Origin: a virus
Lineage: Duplodnaviria > Heunggongvirae > Uroviricota > Caudoviricetes
Direction: 5' to 3' (one strand)
IMG/VR virus record: IMGVR_UViG_2690316311_000019
Length of the DNA stretch: 64,000 nucleotides
The number at the start of each line of letters is the position of its first letter. Position 1 is the stretch's first letter. Shown one piece after another: positions 425 to 5,049 of this stretch. The position numbers and the translations under genes were made by a program. Below the pieces are notes generated by a model. It ran no database searches. It worked only from the letters and a program-made list of their open reading frames with translations, and was not told the origin of the DNA.

Positions 425-2212
425 TGTCAGGCATTCAGTATCGCGGGATTACGTGGTGGGCTTGATGATGAGCGTGGCGCGCTAACTTTAAAGTATGTGG
501 AGTTTGCAAATGCAATTGACGACAAACGGGCTGAGTCATTTCTCAAACCAGCCGTTATCGTCTGGGAAAATGTCCCAGGAGTCTTGTCATCGGCAGATAA
601 CGCCTTCGGATGTTTCCTTGCCGGATTGGCTGGAGAAGATGTGCCATTTGAACCAGGTGATCGACCTGAATCAGGAAAAAGCAACGCGTTCTGGCGGTGG
701 GATGGCAAAACCGGTTGCCATGTTCCAAAGTGGCCGCAGTGTGGTTGTATTTATGGACCGCAGCGAAAAGTGGCCTGGAGAATCCTTGATGCCCAATACT
801 TCGGAGTGGCACAACGACGCCGACGCGTGTTTGTTGTCGCAAGTGCTCGAACAGATCTCGATCCCGCAACGGTACTTTTTGAGTTCGAAGGCGTGCGCCG
901 GAATATTGCGCCGAGCAGAGGCGAGGGGAAGGAAACTACCAGATATACTTCAAACATCGCTATCAGAACTTGCGATGATACAAACATAATTGCCATGGCA
1001 CATGGGCAAGGAGGGGCTGAGATAAAAACCGATAATTCGGCACCAACTTTGACATGTAACCATGAAGCACCAATTGTATTGCTCGGCGACGGTAGAATGC
1101 GCCGTCTTACCCCTGTCGAATGTGAAAGGCTGCAAGGTTTTCCTGATTGGCATACGTTGATCCCTACGGAAAAGCGTAAAAAAGTTAATTCAGATGAACT
1201 GGCATATCTGCACAATCACTATCCAGATTTAAGCGAAGAAGAGGCCGCAATGCTTGCAGCTGACGGACCGCGTTACAAAGCGATCGGCAATAGTATGGCA
1301 ATACCAGTAATGCGCTGGATTGGCGATCGGATTACTAAGGCCGTATGTCGGCAGAAAGAAGGAAGTGAAACAAAAGAGCGAAAAGTTAAACCAGCGGCAG
1401 AATTCGAACGGTCCATATTCAAATGGGCTGGTGGAAAATTTGGTGTTCTGGAACAAATCTTTCGCTATTTGCCAGAAGGGAAGCGCCTGATTGAACCTTT
1501 CGTTGGTGGCGGAGCTGTCTTCATGAATGCCGGATACCAGGAAAATCTGCTAAATGATGTGAATGCTGACCTGATTAACTTTTACAAGACTCTGCAACGC
1601 GAGGCGCATTCACTTATCACTCTGGCACATCGTTTCTTCCAGGACTACAACACACAGGAAGGATACCTGGCAGTACGGAATGCGTTTAACAAACAAGTCT
1701 ATGATGATTTACATCGCGCAGCGGCGTTTTTGTTCCTGAACCGACATTGTTTTAACGGATTGACGCGTTACAACCAGGCCGGTGAGTTCAATGTCGGTTA
1801 TGGGAAGTATAAAACTCCGTATTTCCCATTACAGGAGATGGAAGCCTTCCTCGGTGCGGAAGGGCGGTCTGAGTTTGTATGCGGTGATTTTGCAGCGGTG
1901 ATTGAAGCTGCCGGAGAAGGAGATGTCATCTTTTGCGATCCGCCGTATGAACCGCTTCCAAATACAGAGGGATTCACGAACTATTCCGGTCATGACTTTA
2001 AGTTTGAAGAGCAAAAACGCCTGGTGTCTCTGTTGACGGATGCTCATCGTCGAGGTGCAAAGGTTCTCATTACTAACAGTGGCGCGCCAAACATCAGAGA
2101 GCTTTATCATGACAGTGGCTTCAGAGTGGAACCTCTTTTTGCCAGACGTTCTGTGTCTTGTAAGGGGGACACTCGAGGTGTAGCTCATGACGTTTTGGGT
2201 ATATTGCTCTAA
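2..2212 (+). CDS. dmt: Bifunctional DNA methyltransferase Dmt, 5'-partial (frame open to window edge): C5-cytosine MTase motifs IV-X followed by Dam-like N6-adenine MTase domain
   Basis: CQAFSIAG (motif IV Cys at nt 425-427), ENVPGV, QRRRRVFVV, LQGFPDW, GNSMAIPV; C-terminal domain with KWAGGKFG, EPFVGGGAV and DPPY; stop TAA 2210-2212. Confidence 0.8.
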   Translation, partial: ELSHAKRIPAWVMSHPLRHVFLQGYLDTDGTPSGKAGFRINSVSSALAWGVAGLSQTCGYVSSVSFIEVEPKKVIEDRVVNQRNYYQVTICPQKLSRKSRLAHGMLLRTVKEFKSVGLDTVYNIEVEGDHSYILNGAVVHNCQAFSIAGLRGGLDDERGALTLKYVEFANAIDDKRAESFLKPAVIVWENVPGVLSSADNAFGCFLAGLAGEDVPFEPGDRPESGKSNAFWRWDGKTGCHVPKWPQCGCIYGPQRKVAWRILDAQYFGVAQRRRRVFVVASARTDLDPATVLFEFEGVRRNIAPSRGEGKETTRYTSNIAIRTCDDTNIIAMAHGQGGAEIKTDNSAPTLTCNHEAPIVLLGDGRMRRLTPVECERLQGFPDWHTLIPTEKRKKVNSDELAYLHNHYPDLSEEEAAMLAADGPRYKAIGNSMAIPVMRWIGDRITKAVCRQKEGSETKERKVKPAAEFERSIFKWAGGKFGVLEQIFRYLPEGKRLIEPFVGGGAVFMNAGYQENLLNDVNADLINFYKTLQREAHSLITLAHRFFQDYNTQEGYLAVRNAFNKQVYDDLHRAAAFLFLNRHCFNGLTRYNQAGEFNVGYGKYKTPYFPLQEMEAFLGAEGRSEFVCGDFAAVIEAAGEGDVIFCDPPYEPLPNTEGFTNYSGHDFKFEEQKRLVSLLTDAHRRGAKVLITNSGAPNIRELYHDSGFRVEPLFARRSVSCKGDTRGVAHDVLGILL

Positions 2213-2219
2213 TAAATTT
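2203..2219 (+). promoter_or_regulatory. C1 repressor operator (ATTGCTCTAATAAATTT) overlapping the dmt stop codon
   Basis: Exact 17-bp match to the P1 C1 operator consensus; partial inverted copy immediately downstream. Confidence 0.7.
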
Positions 2220-2393
2220 ATTAGTGTAATATCACCTCAATGAATCGTGATTTATAGAGCGATTTAGCTGTTAGCCGCGACAGGCGCGGCGGTAAGCATG
2301 GCTGGGCCTAGTCCTCCCAGACAAACCACCGAGTTGCCAGGTTGACCATGCGCCTAAGTGGCAACGCCGAAGTGCGTTACGAGCGTCCAGTTT

Positions 2394-2419
2394 GCCCATC
2401 TTCGGGTGGGCGTTTTTTT
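2394..2419 (+). terminator. Rho-independent terminator (GCCCATC-TTCG-GGTGGGC + T7)
   Basis: 7-bp GC-rich stem, tetraloop, followed by run of 7 T. Confidence 0.6.
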
Positions 2420-2603
2420 CAGGGTTTTCGTCATGGTTAGCGACTTTGCGGCGGTTTAGAAACTGACCATTAAAGTAAATGCAAACGATGATCTGATGAT
2501 GGTAGCGGCCTAAGAAGCCAGATGCCATGGGGTATGAGTCGTCCCCCGTCAAAAAATCGACCGCAGAGTGTCCCCGTCTGTGTATTAGGGAACGGGGAGG
2601 CAC

Positions 2604-2678
2604 AACAGGTAAGGGCGCTGGTGTGATTAACCAGATGAACGAGAAGGGGCCATCTGTTGGTCAGCGTCCTTTCCTGTT
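2604..2678 (+). repeat. Hairpin element E0 of a 4-member family (arms AACAGGTAAGGGCGCTG / CAGCGTCCTTTCCTGTT)
   Basis: Imperfect inverted repeat whose arm sequence is shared with elements at 3136, 3507 and 3779. Confidence 0.5.
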
Positions 2679-2884
2679 GCGTTTTCTTTTCAGCGTAACA
2701 GCGGTGCTTAACAGCACTTTGGGTACAGTTCCACGAATTTACGGGTATATCCCGTCATGCTGAAGGCGCTAATCACGCTGGAAGCCAGGGTTATGCATCC
2801 CCTGTTACCGAATTGCAGCCAGGGCGCGGTGCGCCGAAAAGCATACGGAGGTGGAAGCCCTCGCCGGAGACGTACCCGGCAAGT

Positions 2885-2959
2885 GATGGTGTAGCTCAGC
2901 GGTAGAGCAGTTGGCTGTTAACCAACTGGTCGGTAGTTCGAATCCACCCACCATCGCCA
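2885..2959 (+). tRNA. tRNA-Asn (anticodon GTT)
   Basis: Cloverleaf read by hand: acceptor GATGGTG/CACCATC, D-arm GCTC-AGCGGTA-GAGC, anticodon stem GTTGG/CCAAC with loop CTGTTAA, T-loop TTCGAAT, discriminator G + CCA. Confidence 0.8.
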
Positions 2960-2964
2960 CTTTA

Positions 2965-3051
2965 GGGGAGTTAGTCCGTAGGGGTAGCGGGGTAGACTGT
3001 AAATCTACTGTCATTGCGACTCGGGTGGTTCGACTCCATCACTCCCCACCA
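2965..3051 (+). tRNA. Type-II (long variable arm) tRNA-Tyr-like, anticodon GTA; D-arm pairing irregular, may be a pseudo-tRNA
   Basis: Acceptor GGGGAGT/ACTCCCC + A + CCA; anticodon stem GTAGA/TCTAC with loop CTGTAAA; variable arm and T-arm resemble E. coli tRNA-Tyr. Confidence 0.5.
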
Positions 3052-3055
3052 CATT

Positions 3056-3131
3056 GCCGATTTAGCTCAGTTGGTAGAGCAGTCGCTTTGTAAGCGAATG
3101 GTCAGCGGTTCGATCCCGTTAATCGGCACCA
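3056..3131 (+). tRNA. tRNA-Thr (anticodon TGT)
   Basis: Acceptor GCCGATT/AATCGGC, D-arm GCTC-AGTTGGTA-GAGC, anticodon loop TTTGTAA, T-loop TTCGATC, CCA end. Confidence 0.75.
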
Positions 3132-3135
3132 ACAT

Positions 3136-3210
3136 AACAGGTAAGAGCATTCTCCCTTATGGGGCCTGGCTTAAATGCATCGAGTGCTCTTACCGTTGTG
3201 ATGAAGTGCA
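3136..3210 (+). repeat. Hairpin element E1 (arms ACAGGTAAGAGCATTCTC / GAGTGCTCTTACC, conserved 3' tail GTTGTGATGAAGTGCAG)
   Basis: Immediately downstream of tRNA-Thr; arm and tail shared with E2/E3. Confidence 0.5.
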
Positions 3211-3506
3211 GATCTTAGAAGCAACCAGAAGATAAGCATCTGGCTTCACAACATAAACCGCAGGAACGACCAATAAACGGTAGTCCGTATGGAGAACACC
3301 CCGTTGAGGAAGAGGCCTGGCCGGAACCGTAACCGGCGACTGGTAATGTGTGTAAATGGAGCGAAATATGTGGGCGTTTAACGGGATACGGGTTGTAACA
3401 GCGATTATTAACGGCGAACTTAAGTATTCACGTTTCGAGACAAATGAACGTGATGGGAAATGTATTGGTGTGCGGTTAGTAAGAGAATACGCATAACAAC
3501 TACAAC

Positions 3507-3606
3507 GTTGAGAACACTGGCGTAACGGGGTCATATCCCAATCTACGAATAAATGTTGCGTTGCCGCGTGACAACCAGTGTTCTCAACATTGTGGTGAAT
3601 GCACAG
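3507..3606 (+). repeat. Hairpin element E2 (perfect 14-bp stem GTTGAGAACACTGG / CCAGTGTTCTCAAC; loop contains GTAACGGGGTCATATCCCAATCTAC; tail ATTGTGGTGAATGCACAGG)
   Basis: Loop motif and tail shared with E3. Confidence 0.5.
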
Positions 3607-3778
3607 GCTGATGTGCCGCAACTACAGTAGTGCGCGCTTTGCGGGGCTTGCTACAACCCTGTGTCGGAGTTCAGCACCGACCATCACAGTTTGATTCTCT
3701 GGCATGAGCATAACGCTGAAATAAGTCCAGTCTGGTGCGGTCTGATCACCCGCCGTTAGCTCCACGAAACGGAGCACG

Positions 3779-3864
3779 TAACAGGTAAGAGCATTCTCCT
3801 GTAACGGGTTCATATCCCAATCTACAGGTCCACCAAGAATGCTCTTTCCGTTGCGGTGAATGCG
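3779..3864 (+). repeat. Hairpin element E3 (arms of E1 + loop motif of E2; tail GTTGCGGTGAATGCGG)
   Basis: AACAGGTAAGAGCATTCTCC ... GTAACGGGTTCATATCCCAATCTAC ... GAATGCTCTTTCC. Confidence 0.5.
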
Positions 3865-4004
3865 GCTAAGCGCACGCGGGGAAATGGTTATATCTGTCCA
3901 TTATTTCTCCTTGTTTCCACGTCCACGGTGGATAACCAGCCAAAGGACACCGGGAGGAACCCGGCACCGCAGCTTTTTTATTCGTTAAATAATGGAGTGA
4001 GAGG

Positions 4005-4241
4005 ATGCAGAACAATCCGAACAAATGTCGAACGCTATGGGTGCGGTTATATATTTATGCCGTCCTCTGTTTGATTGTGTCACTGGTTCTGTATGTTTGG
4101 CTTTTGCCAAATATGATCTCATCTAACAGCACAATACTTGTATTGTTGGGAGTCCTTCTCGCGCTCATTTACCCGGCTTTCGCAGTAGTCTTTTTTCGTG
4201 AAAAAACCAGGAAATTAATTAATGAAAAAAACGTTGATTAG
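4005..4241 (+). CDS. upl: Small two-helix membrane protein upstream of plp
   Basis: 78-aa hydrophobic ORF with GAGAGG RBS; position immediately upstream of lipoprotein gene. Confidence 0.5.
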   Translation: MQNNPNKCRTLWVRLYIYAVLCLIVSLVLYVWLLPNMISSNSTILVLLGVLLALIYPAFAVVFFREKTRKLINEKNVD

Positions 4242-5049
4242 TGCAGCGATTATTTTGGGTTCTTTATGTCTGACCGGATGCGATCGGGTAGAGCCAGGTA
4301 ACGTAGGGATCAAAGTAAATAAGCTGGGGGATGATAAAGGTATCGGTGAAGTAGTTGGCGTTGGTCGCTACTGGACAGGCTTGAATACTGAAGTTTATAT
4401 CTTCCCGACCTTTAAGCAAATGAAGACATACGATGAGCCGTTCAGCTTCCAGATGAGCGACGGAACAACCATTGGTTACCACATCGGCGTAGCCTACAAG
4501 GTTGATCCAGCAAAAGTCACAACGGTATTTCAGACCTATCGCAAAGGTGTAGATGATATTACTGATACCGATCTACGCCAGAAGGTTGCAGATGCTCTGA
4601 ACCGATTAGCCAGCAAAATGACCACCGACAAATTTATCGACGGTGGCAAATCTGAATTGCTTGATGCAGCCCTTAAAGACATTCAGGAAGAAATGACGCC
4701 AATCGGCATTCAGGTGATGAGCCTCTCTTATGTAGGTAAGCCAGAATACCCGCCAACAGTTATTGACAGTATTAACGCCAAAGTCACGGCAAACCAAAAA
4801 ACCCTGCAACGCGAGCAAGAGGTCAAACAACGTGAAGCAGAGGCCAACATGCTGCGCGCGGAAGCTGCCGGACAGGCTGATGCTATTCGCACAAAAGCCC
4901 AGGCCGAAGCTGATGCCATTCGTTTACGTGGTGAAGCTCTGCGCCAGAACCCCGGTGTTATGGACTTGGAAGCGATCAACAAATGGAACGGTACATTACC
5001 GCAGTATATGACCAGTAATACCGCTGTTCCGTTTGTTCCGGTGAAATAA
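4222..5049 (+). CDS. plp: Lipoprotein, SPFH/band-7-like
   Basis: Lipobox LCLTGC after signal peptide; 275 aa. Confidence 0.65.
   Translation: MKKTLISAAIILGSLCLTGCDRVEPGNVGIKVNKLGDDKGIGEVVGVGRYWTGLNTEVYIFPTFKQMKTYDEPFSFQMSDGTTIGYHIGVAYKVDPAKVTTVFQTYRKGVDDITDTDLRQKVADALNRLASKMTTDKFIDGGKSELLDAALKDIQEEMTPIGIQVMSLSYVGKPEYPPTVIDSINAKVTANQKTLQREQEVKQREAEANMLRAEAAGQADAIRTKAQAEADAIRLRGEALRQNPGVMDLEAINKWNGTLPQYMTSNTAVPFVPVK

Follow-up and report, generated by a model that had tools for sequence, protein, structure and literature searches.

The 64,000-nt stretch of the IMG/VR virus record IMGVR_UViG_2690316311_000019 (hereafter the window) comes from a P1-like phage (Punavirus) and carries four long hairpin elements, E1 to E4, in a non-coding region that also harbors a cluster of tRNA genes. 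The four elements are plus-strand RNA structures and represent paralogous copies of one conserved phage module, which consists of a long hairpin (hairpin A) and, in E2, E3 and E4, a second domain (domain B) closed by an alternative pairing of the hairpin base. Judging by homology and published precedent, the elements most likely function as processing sites of the RNase III type, which would separate the tRNAs and release the structured RNAs located downstream, and we give this reading a probability of about one half.

Hairpin A is an imperfect stem of 20-28 bp with a variable interior, at the base of which CACAAC (strand S1) is paired with GUUGYG (strand S2). The stem base, searched for as (C/U)(A/G)(C/U)AAC for S1 and GUUG(U/C)G for S2, was found in the four elements (Table 1), and no further copies were found in the window. 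On the plus strand, the folds had z-scores of -5.25, -4.46, -5.05 and -4.62 for E1 to E4, respectively, relative to dinucleotide shuffles, with none of the 200 shuffles being as stable as the elements themselves. The plus-strand fold was more stable than the minus-strand one in all four cases, which agrees with the placement of the elements on the tRNA strand in an earlier note made on this DNA. The same note had located all four within a few bases of the boundaries given in Table 1, and the sequences it described as shared were recovered with a repeat finder and by alignment: the 5′ arm AACAGGTAAG(A/G)GC is common to E1, E2 and E4, the loop motif GTAACGGG(G/T)TCATATCCCAATCTAC to E3 and E4, and the tail GTTG(T/C)G(A/G)TGAA(G/T) to E2, E3 and E4. 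Its view of E3 as a mosaic of E1 and E2 has to be abandoned since E3 possesses an arm type of its own (CAACGTTGAGAACACTGG/CCAGTGTTCTCAAC) and has its loop in common with E4 and its tail with both E2 and E4. Each arm type has counterparts in other phages. E1 is homologous to a hairpin of SSU5-like phages (GUAACAGAAUGGGCGG.../...CCGCCCAUCCUGUUAC), with changes from G·U to G-C pairs; the arms of E3 show compensation in SSU5-like copies (GAGACCACUGG/CCGUGGUCUC and GAGGCCAUUAC/GUAGUGGCCUC); and those of E4 (AACAGGTAAGAGCATT...AATGCTCTTTCCGTTG) are almost identical to the arms of a copy in phage lambda (CAACAGGTAAGAGCATTG...GTGCTCTTTCCGTTGTG).

The hairpins were compared with several known types of structure. 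A test for intrinsic terminators (a G+C-rich hairpin followed by a U-run) found no U-run after E2, E3 or E4, the only call of the scan being at 2393-2412; after E1 there is a U-rich tract with interruptions, and the rule applied in the scan does not cover a loop as long as that of E1. A search of the region 2200-4010 for tRNA cloverleaves returned only tRNA-Asn, tRNA-Tyr and tRNA-Thr, even with ARAGORN at -ps85 and at Rfam E-values up to 10, and the permissive Rfam search as a whole yielded nothing but these tRNAs, a sub-threshold STnc100 match, weak transfer-messenger RNA (tmRNA) matches and meaningless matches to miRNA hairpins. The hairpins were also not recognized as degenerate tRNAs by ARAGORN with a relaxed threshold or by the Rfam tRNA model. 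The CACAAC...GTTGTG arrangement recalls the R″ and R′ boxes of integron attC sites; this candidate was rejected as GTTGTGA and GTTGCGG do not fit GTTRRRY when compared by eye and there is no integrase context. Retron msd sequences, CRISPR-like repeats and the repeats of type III antitoxins were rejected by anatomy only, given the lack of a reverse transcriptase or Cas context and the mismatched repeat lengths.

The arms of hairpin A covary. In a set of relatives retrieved with S2 and the first hairpin of domain B as anchors, so that the arms themselves were not selected, variation among the 3′ arms is wide and is mirrored by the 5′ arms, as in GGGAAGGACACUGG/CCAGUGUUCUUCCC, GAUAAGCUGCCUG/CAGGCGGCUUUUC and UGUAACGACGCU/AGCGUCGUUACA. 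The mean energy of the arm duplex was -16.7 kcal/mol for cognate arms versus -9.1 kcal/mol for non-cognate ones; the cognate arm ranked top in 16 of 35 cases, and in 28 of 35 the duplex was more favorable on the plus strand. Of the elements of the window, E1, E2 and E4 were included in a gap-free alignment of 50 distinct copies (S1, 14 nt of each arm and S2), the E3-type arms being represented by the copies from loci L018, L008, L009 and L012. Standard pairs occupied 92.7% of the cells of this alignment against 72.7% in shuffles, a percentage inflated by the fitting of the register and by the requirement that a copy form 9 or more of 14 pairs. This procedure has less influence on the compensatory counts, which reveal double-sided changes in 16 of the 20 pairs (181 cells, compared with 50 in shuffles). 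None of these pairing and covariation measures was reached in any of 500 shuffles, and pairing fell to 32-57% when the partner was slid by 1 to 3 columns. Read on the plus strand, the stem contains a conserved U·U mismatch and a frequent U·G pair (pair 17:28 is U·G in 25 copies). The suggestion of the earlier note that the elements are structured RNAs co-transcribed with the tRNAs is thus supported by the covariation that it proposed to look for, by the G·U pairs on the tRNA strand and by conservation in three groups of phages.

In E2, E3 and E4, S2 extends as GUUGYGRUGAAU and can pair with a downstream strand CAYCRCAAC (S3), thereby closing the branched domain B, which contains a first small hairpin, a variable middle part and a terminal hairpin; in E1 no such closure was found and the U-rich tract occupies its place. 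The common 3′ tail of the earlier note is therefore genuinely shared, but it is the 5′ strand of a second conserved domain, belonging to a family that extends far beyond P1. The pairings of S2 with S1 and with S3 are mutually exclusive, and both are conserved. In E4, where S2 reads GUUGCG instead of GUUGUG, the change from U to C is matched by changes from A to G in both S1 (CGUAAC) and S3 (CACCGCAGC), and another locus harbors the compensated variant CGCAAC/GTTGCGGTG/CACCGCAAT. The two states of the lambda leader are close in energy, since the minimum free energy fold uses S2:S3 and the centroid uses hairpin A. Domain B of E3 has the layout of the lambdoid consensus. As to the borders of the module, S1 lies next to the 3′ CCA of a tRNA, and in relatives S3 is immediately followed by another tRNA or module, in some cases as CACAACACAAC.

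Judged from its sequence and layout, domain B is the 5′ domain, or scaffold, of the Hfq-bound small RNAs (sRNAs) of the PasD/STnc100 type. Domain B of E4 (3852-3971) matches the Rfam family STnc100 (RF02076) with 38.0 bits (E = 2.9e-06, model positions 31-147 of 206), which is below the gathering score of 47, so the Rfam scan suggested in the earlier note assigns no element to a family at its gathering score and yields this sub-threshold likeness. No Rfam family matches domain B of E2 or E3 or the commonest lambdoid subtype. The first part of domain B of E4 (window 3852-3879, TGCGGTGAATGCGGCTAAGCGCACGCGG) is a stretch of 28 nt shared without mismatch by over 2,500 E. coli records, nearly all of which are chromosomes, and 2,744 of 5,426 genomes had some match to a query containing it. 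In Qin-like prophages, this stretch is part of the dicF-dicB spacer, and the STnc100 fold found there is likewise sub-threshold. STnc100 and the sRNAs PasD1 and PasD2 of enteropathogenic E. coli have been described as having a common structure and probably a common ancestor, with the PasD genes adjoining Q and the holin/lysozyme genes (2026 preprint). PasD1 (NC_011601, 1060260-1060432; Pearl Mizrahi et al.) is an abundant sRNA with Hfq-dependent stability. It begins with CGCAUGGUGAAUCCUCCUUGGAGGGG..., its start CGCAUGGUGAAU being at the position of S2, and closes with ...GGCGCCAUGCG, i.e. it consists of domain B followed by a 3′ extension with the seed and the terminator. There is no hairpin A in PasD1, and a promoter-like TTGACT...TATTAA was noticed by eye just upstream.

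The order S1, hairpin, S2, domain B, S3 is found in P1, P7, D6, SJ46, RCS47 and SSU5-like plasmids. The 71-nt unit 3182-3252 is about 90% conserved in SSU5-like phage-plasmids of approximately 110 kb from Klebsiella and E. coli, each of which contains a non-coding tRNA cluster of 1.4-1.6 kb full of modules. Two pattern scans of IMG/VR returned at least 120 loci each, many of them on contigs of 30-55 kb, and over 100 IMG/VR contigs carry the module. One lambdoid prophage of E. coli has it between the Q antiterminator and holin genes, beside a tRNA and on the strand of the late operon; no copy was found in the DLP12 region of E. coli K-12 that was examined. Relatives differ by the gain or loss of whole modules and by chimeras with breakpoints in the shared repeat parts: SJ46 carries an E3/E4 chimera joined through the shared loop, RCS47 has one extra module, and P1 has a hybrid copy with an E1-like 5′ arm and an E2-like 3′ part. 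What the earlier note considered as remnants of repeated insertion is this side effect and does not define the elements. A canonical tRNA T-arm of the GGTTCGAATCC type is contained in some interiors of hairpin A and some terminal hairpins of domain B, namely at L001 2340-2426 (P1), at L007 3026-3112 and in the IMG/VR loci L017, L018, L030, L096, L064 and L119.

Processing by RNase, which the earlier note had listed among several options, is the best-supported mechanism, on the basis of homology and of the precedents published for the lambda leader, DicF and PasD. The elements would be transcribed within the non-coding leader operon of the C1-repressed promoter Pban, in which a leader like that of the dicF operon, a tmRNA-like unit, tRNA-Asn/Tyr/Thr, three copies of the module, the downstream genes and ban would follow one another. 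Hairpin A would form first, during transcription, and its long stem would offer a putative cleavage site to a double-strand-specific enzyme of the RNase III type; an imperfect stem of 20-28 bp between the units of a polycistronic non-coding transcript does fit such a processing site. Cleavage of the stem would detach the preceding tRNA or RNA unit and free S2, and the freed S2 would pair with S3, allowing the domain B RNA to fold; its 5′ end would then be at S2, the start of PasD1, which is transcribed independently. To obtain the same 5′ end as the free-standing PasD1, an embedded copy would need its upstream hairpin to be removed. The products of cleavage would presumably be stable. For the lambda leader, a paper of 1988 (Daniels et al.) deals, according to its title, with the RNase III sites used in vivo, which presumably lie in the lambda copy of hairpin A. 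A related case is the 190-nt precursor of DicF in the dicBF operon of Qin, the 5′ end of which is created by RNase III: counted by length in locus L011, this end falls at about GUGCG/CUUCCGGUUGUGG, in a sequence that resembles the 3′ arm of hairpin A together with S2.

Several points weigh against processing by RNase III as the role of the elements. The arms AGGUAAGAGCAUUG/CAGUGCUCUUUCC, including the U·U mismatch, are more conserved than a generic RNase III stem needs, a possible sign of a sequence-specific partner. Domain B is missing from E1 and amounts to a simple hairpin in E2. In the Qin prophage, no long hairpin folds around the RNase III site deduced above. The covariation alignment was itself fitted to the structure, its register being the one with the best pairing.

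The first alternative to be considered is that hairpin A and domain B are functional RNAs themselves, serving as scaffolds that mimic tRNA or bind proteins and whose variable interior does the work, for instance as decoys for tRNA-directed enzymes or as carriers of sRNA seed sequences. This is possible though not probable. It would account for a strongly conserved scaffold with two hypervariable inserts and is in line with PasD and STnc100 being bona fide Hfq-associated sRNAs. Canonical T-arms are present in several interiors (P1 GGCAGAGGGTTCGAATCCCTACG, L018, L017, L096 and L030), a few copies of domain B combine a D-arm-like GCTCAATGGCGAGC with a T-arm GCAGGTTCGATTCCTGT beside the closing strand, and CCA is the commonest triplet after S3 (14 of 81 units); together these pieces suggest, at the level of sequence, a tRNA-derived origin or tRNA mimicry. 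Nevertheless, no tRNA was recognized in the hairpins by relaxed ARAGORN or the Rfam tRNA model, even in the T-arm hairpin of P1, T-arm-like pieces occur in a minority of copies and in none of the 81 units of the commonest subtype, the acceptor-like stem has 9 bp and no G3:U70 pair, and the seed of PasD1 is located in a 3′ extension that the copies of the window lack. It is unlikely, too, that the hairpins are co-transcriptional pause, attenuator or insulator structures in the leaders of antiterminated or derepressed RNA polymerase. The lambda copy does start 9 nt after the U-run of the terminator tR′, many lambdoid copies directly follow a terminator-like hairpin with a T-run, E1 is followed by the U-rich GCGUUUUCUUUUC, and the E4 unit ends in U6; yet the stems of E2-E4 have no U-tract, the U6 after domain B of E4 is absent in P1 and other relatives, and both the conserved S2:S3 pairing and domain B would be left unexplained. 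The hairpin and U-run at 3950-3979 that the earlier note regarded as a possible transcript end both exist, but the terminator scan does not call them.

Explanations that assign no RNA role to the elements are less likely still. The elements could be DNA-level repeats, either recombination cassettes or a mobile element similar to miniature inverted-repeat transposable elements which shuffles tRNA genes, and the whole-module differences and chimeras of SJ46, RCS47 and P1, together with a variable tRNA content (Tyr and Ser(UGA) being present or absent among relatives), are what such a role would predict. These mosaics do not require a function at the DNA level because any repeat recombines, and we regard this explanation as very unlikely given that the G·U pairs and the stability of the duplexes favor one strand, that compensatory changes keep the pairing over 20 positions, and that no target-site duplications or transposase were seen. 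Finally, the region could encode two proteins on the minus strand, with the hairpins being incidental. Two open reading frames (ORFs), the homologues of P1 plp (143 aa in the window) and upl (63 aa), overlap E3 and E4, and the genes are annotated in P1 and RCS47, plp as a 'putative lipoprotein'. The earlier note had placed the elements between the C1 operator and upl and had stated that no protein-coding frame explains them; in fact, E3 and E4 lie under the plp and upl homologues, annotated in P1 and missed in that note, while its statement holds insofar as the ORFs lack a coding signal. Neither ORF matches a Pfam family. The plp ORF varies in length (125 aa in P1, 139 aa in RCS47, 143 aa in the window), only two of its segments align in most relatives, one of them with 1-nt indels, and the middle segment is replaced. 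Distinct substitutions are distributed over codon positions 1:2:3 as 5:9:13 in plp and 4:10:9 in upl, and the absence of a third-position excess means the absence of a coding signature. Neither gene is annotated in P7 or D6, both of which carry a plus-strand tRNA-Ser(UGA) in the equivalent interval, downstream of tRNA-Thr, and lambda and other phages that have no such ORFs contain these RNA elements as well. By this sequence evidence, the plp and upl annotations are probably spurious, and a protein-coding explanation of the region is extremely unlikely. The orf-64 of lambda overlaps the 6S RNA and the 5′ arm of the lambda hairpin in a similar way.

Directly upstream of E1, which is the hairpin A following it in the window, there is a unit resembling tmRNA (ssrA). 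Its tag frame at 2481-2513 reads GCA AAC GAT GAT CTG ATG ATG GTA GCG GCC TAA and encodes ANDDLMMVAA followed by a stop codon; the ssrA tag of E. coli is ANDENYALAA. The context UAAAU/GCA aligns to the resume region of the Rfam permuted tmRNA model. In 1.9 Mb of loci, 13 tag variants were found at 55 places on P1-like, SSU5-like and lambdoid-size contigs, all of them having 10 codons and ending in AA or VA; one further match to the tag has a different upstream context and is probably due to chance. Inspected by eye, the frame is not conserved 5′ of GCA. The stop codon lies inside a helix-5-like hairpin with compensatory changes, and an H-type pseudoknot follows, the second stem of which covaries in the alignment, as judged by eye (CCGA:UCGG, CCAG:CUGG, CCAA:UUGG and GUCG:CGAC). 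The unit thus has a tag frame with a resume codon, a stop codon in helix 5 and a following pseudoknot, and differs from tmRNA in that no acceptor/T-arm half was found: default ARAGORN and Rfam at threshold reveal no tRNA-like domain (acceptor with G3:U70, T-arm and 3′ CCA), and low-threshold ARAGORN, the P1-like, SSU5-like and lambdoid alignments and consensus folding gave nothing convincing. ARAGORN calls a permuted tmRNA here only at the 80% threshold, and the Rfam scores are 24 bits for tmRNA_permuted (gathering score 47) and 11.6 bits for beta_tmRNA (gathering score 84). The order in lambdoid contigs is terminator, hairpin A, tmRNA-like unit, another hairpin A and domain B. The unit also occurs at about 2187 in L008, 2089 in L009 and 1556 in L012 and in many IMG/VR loci (e.g. 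L021, L028, L145, L152 and L160), always beside hairpin A modules. P1 is not named among the phages listed with ssrA in a 2014 survey of RefSeq phages, and no description of the unit was found in the literature searched. The hairpins might be connecting or processing helices of a tmRNA-derived phage RNA system made up of the message-like unit, hairpin A and domain B as the tRNA-like part, possibly a two-part device for trans-translation or ribosome targeting. In such a system, domain B could be read as an acceptor-like closing stem with D-like and T-like hairpins and an often encoded CCA, and the device could be carried by P1-like, SSU5-like and lambdoid phages; we regard this as speculative and rather improbable.

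The features of the region are listed in Table 1. Between 2200 and 4010, the window is 99.3% identical to Escherichia phage vB_EcoM-Ro157c2YLVW and approximately 95% identical to P1 across 86-88% of the length. The P1 counterpart of the operator palindrome is annotated as the divalent C1 operator Oban with the promoters P1ban and P2ban, followed by the 'dicF-like region', tRNA-Asn and tRNA-Thr, and then towards tciA and ban. The 'dicF-like region' (window 2235-2418) is homologous to the sequence 5′ of dicF and not to DicF itself, resembling by eye positions 2310-2400 of L011 upstream of DicF. The position of DicF is occupied in the window by a different hairpin with a strong intrinsic terminator (2393-2418, called in the scan as 2393-2412 with a T-run), directly downstream of the C1-controlled promoter, and this hairpin-terminator may be a small RNA or may act as an attenuator in the ban operon. 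The tRNA set of the cluster varies among close relatives (window 2965-3051; L003, L004, L007-L010): tRNA-Tyr is present in the window and some SSU5-like plasmids and absent from P1, and tRNA-Ser(UGA), which is just under the Rfam tRNA-Sec threshold, is present in P7, D6 and SSU5-like plasmids and absent from the window. In P1, the small hairpin GGCCGGAACCGTAACCGGC is located directly 5′ of E3, and the window has an insertion of about 160 nt (3340-3500) between the two. On the 3′ side of the RNA cluster (4005-5049), there are an ORF for a small membrane protein and an SPFH/Band 7 gene (Pfam E = 9.7e-31); P1 has tciA/B/C (TerB-like) there, which means that cargo was exchanged in the slot separating the tRNA cluster from tRNA-Met/ban.

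Table 1 Coordinates of the RNA elements and neighboring features in the window
Feature	Position	Strand	Evidence
C1 operator palindrome and Pban promoter region, start of the non-coding operon	2201..2232	+	inverted repeat ATATTGCTCTAATAAA/TTTATTAGTGTAATAT
Leader RNA with an intrinsic terminator at its 3′ end, homologue of the region 5′ of dicF in Qin-type prophages	2235..2418	+	P1 'dicF-like region' annotation
tmRNA-like unit: tag frame, helix-5-like hairpin over the stop codon, pseudoknot	2425..2600	+	conserved frame, compensatory changes
E1, hairpin A copy 1: S1 CACAAC, S2 GUUGCG, then U-rich tract, no domain B	2601..2681	+	fold, -44.8 kcal/mol, z -5.25
tRNA-Asn(GUU)	2885-2959	+	ARAGORN, Rfam
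tRNA-Tyr(GUA)	2965-3051	+	ARAGORN, Rfam
tRNA-Thr(UGU), CCA end 1 nt before E2	3056-3131	+	ARAGORN, Rfam
E2, hairpin A copy 2: S1 CAUAAC, arms GGUAAGAGCAUUC/GAGUGCUCUUACC, S2 GUUGUG	3133..3200	+	fold; part of the covariation alignment
ORFs homologous to P1 plp (3190-3621) and upl (3622-3813), judged to be non-genes	3190..3813	-	no Pfam match, no coding pattern
Domain B of E2, short form: GUUGUGAUGAAG...CUUCACAAC	3195..3252	+	fold
E3, hairpin A copy 3, second arm type (GUUGAGAACACUGG/CCAGUGUUCUCAAC): S1 UACAAC, S2 AUUGUG	3501..3594	+	fold, comparison with relatives
Domain B of E3: S2 UUGUGGUG, first hairpin GCACAGGCUGAUGUGC, terminal hairpin UCGGAGUUCAGCACCGA, S3 CCAUCACA	3589..3689	+	read from the sequence
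Small hairpin GCUCCACGAAACGGAGC, located 5′ of hairpin A in many phages	3759..3775	+	seen in IMG/VR loci, e.g. L032, L096
E4, hairpin A copy 4: S1 CGUAAC, S2 GUUGCG	3777..3855	+	arms almost identical to the lambda copy
Domain B of E4 (STnc100-like): S2 GUUGCGGUG closed by S3 CACCGCAGC (3850-3973, S3 at 3965-3973), then U6	3850..3979	+	Rfam STnc100, 38.0 bits

With these assignments, two doubtful genes of P1, plp and upl, give way to conserved RNA elements. One widespread module, for which Rfam has no family, unites the late leader of lambda, the prophage sRNAs of the PasD/STnc100 type and the tRNA clusters found in P1-like and SSU5-like phage-plasmids, which had previously been regarded as separate subjects. 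Should the processing model be true, it would explain how tRNAs and small RNAs are released from the long leader transcripts of temperate phages, and a defined scaffold would be available in the search for other sRNAs of prophages. The tmRNA-like unit, conserved in three groups of phages, may prove to be the more important lead.

Among known systems, the module of lambda is located at 44787-44941 (L136 467-621), after the 6S RNA terminator tR′, and consists of CACAACAGGTAAGAGCATTG...CAGTGCTCTTTCCGTTGTG and a domain with CAGCACAAC as its closing strand; the orientation of the module is that of the operon in which it lies. Lambda has one copy in a Q-dependent late leader, whereas the window has four in an early C1-repressed operon, interleaved with tRNAs. 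PasD1, PasD2 and STnc100 share the layout of domain B, with a 5′ strand ...UGGUGAAU, a small hairpin, a variable middle part, a terminal hairpin and a 3′ closing strand; PasD1 differs from the copies of the window in having its own promoter-like sequence and a seed in the 3′ extension, and in lacking hairpin A. The Qin prophage shares with the window the P1-type leader, homologous upstream of dicF, and the 28-nt spacer identity, but DicF itself is absent from the window. The RNase III sites R0.3 to R1.3 of the T7 early region are related imperfect hairpins between transcript units, each of which is cut by the host RNase III. Their logic is the same as that proposed here; they are not known to be related in sequence to the module, separate mRNAs and have neither a second domain nor an S1/S2/S3 switch. 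Species 1 and 2 of the T4 tRNA cluster are tRNA-like RNase P substrates with CCA ends, co-transcribed with the phage tRNAs. The likeness to T4 stable RNAs drawn in the earlier note is an analogy only, in that both cases involve structured non-tRNA RNAs beside phage tRNAs, tRNA-like features being found here in some relatives only. Thus, the module belongs with the processing hairpins of phage leaders and the RNAs of the PasD/STnc100 type and is not a new kind of system.

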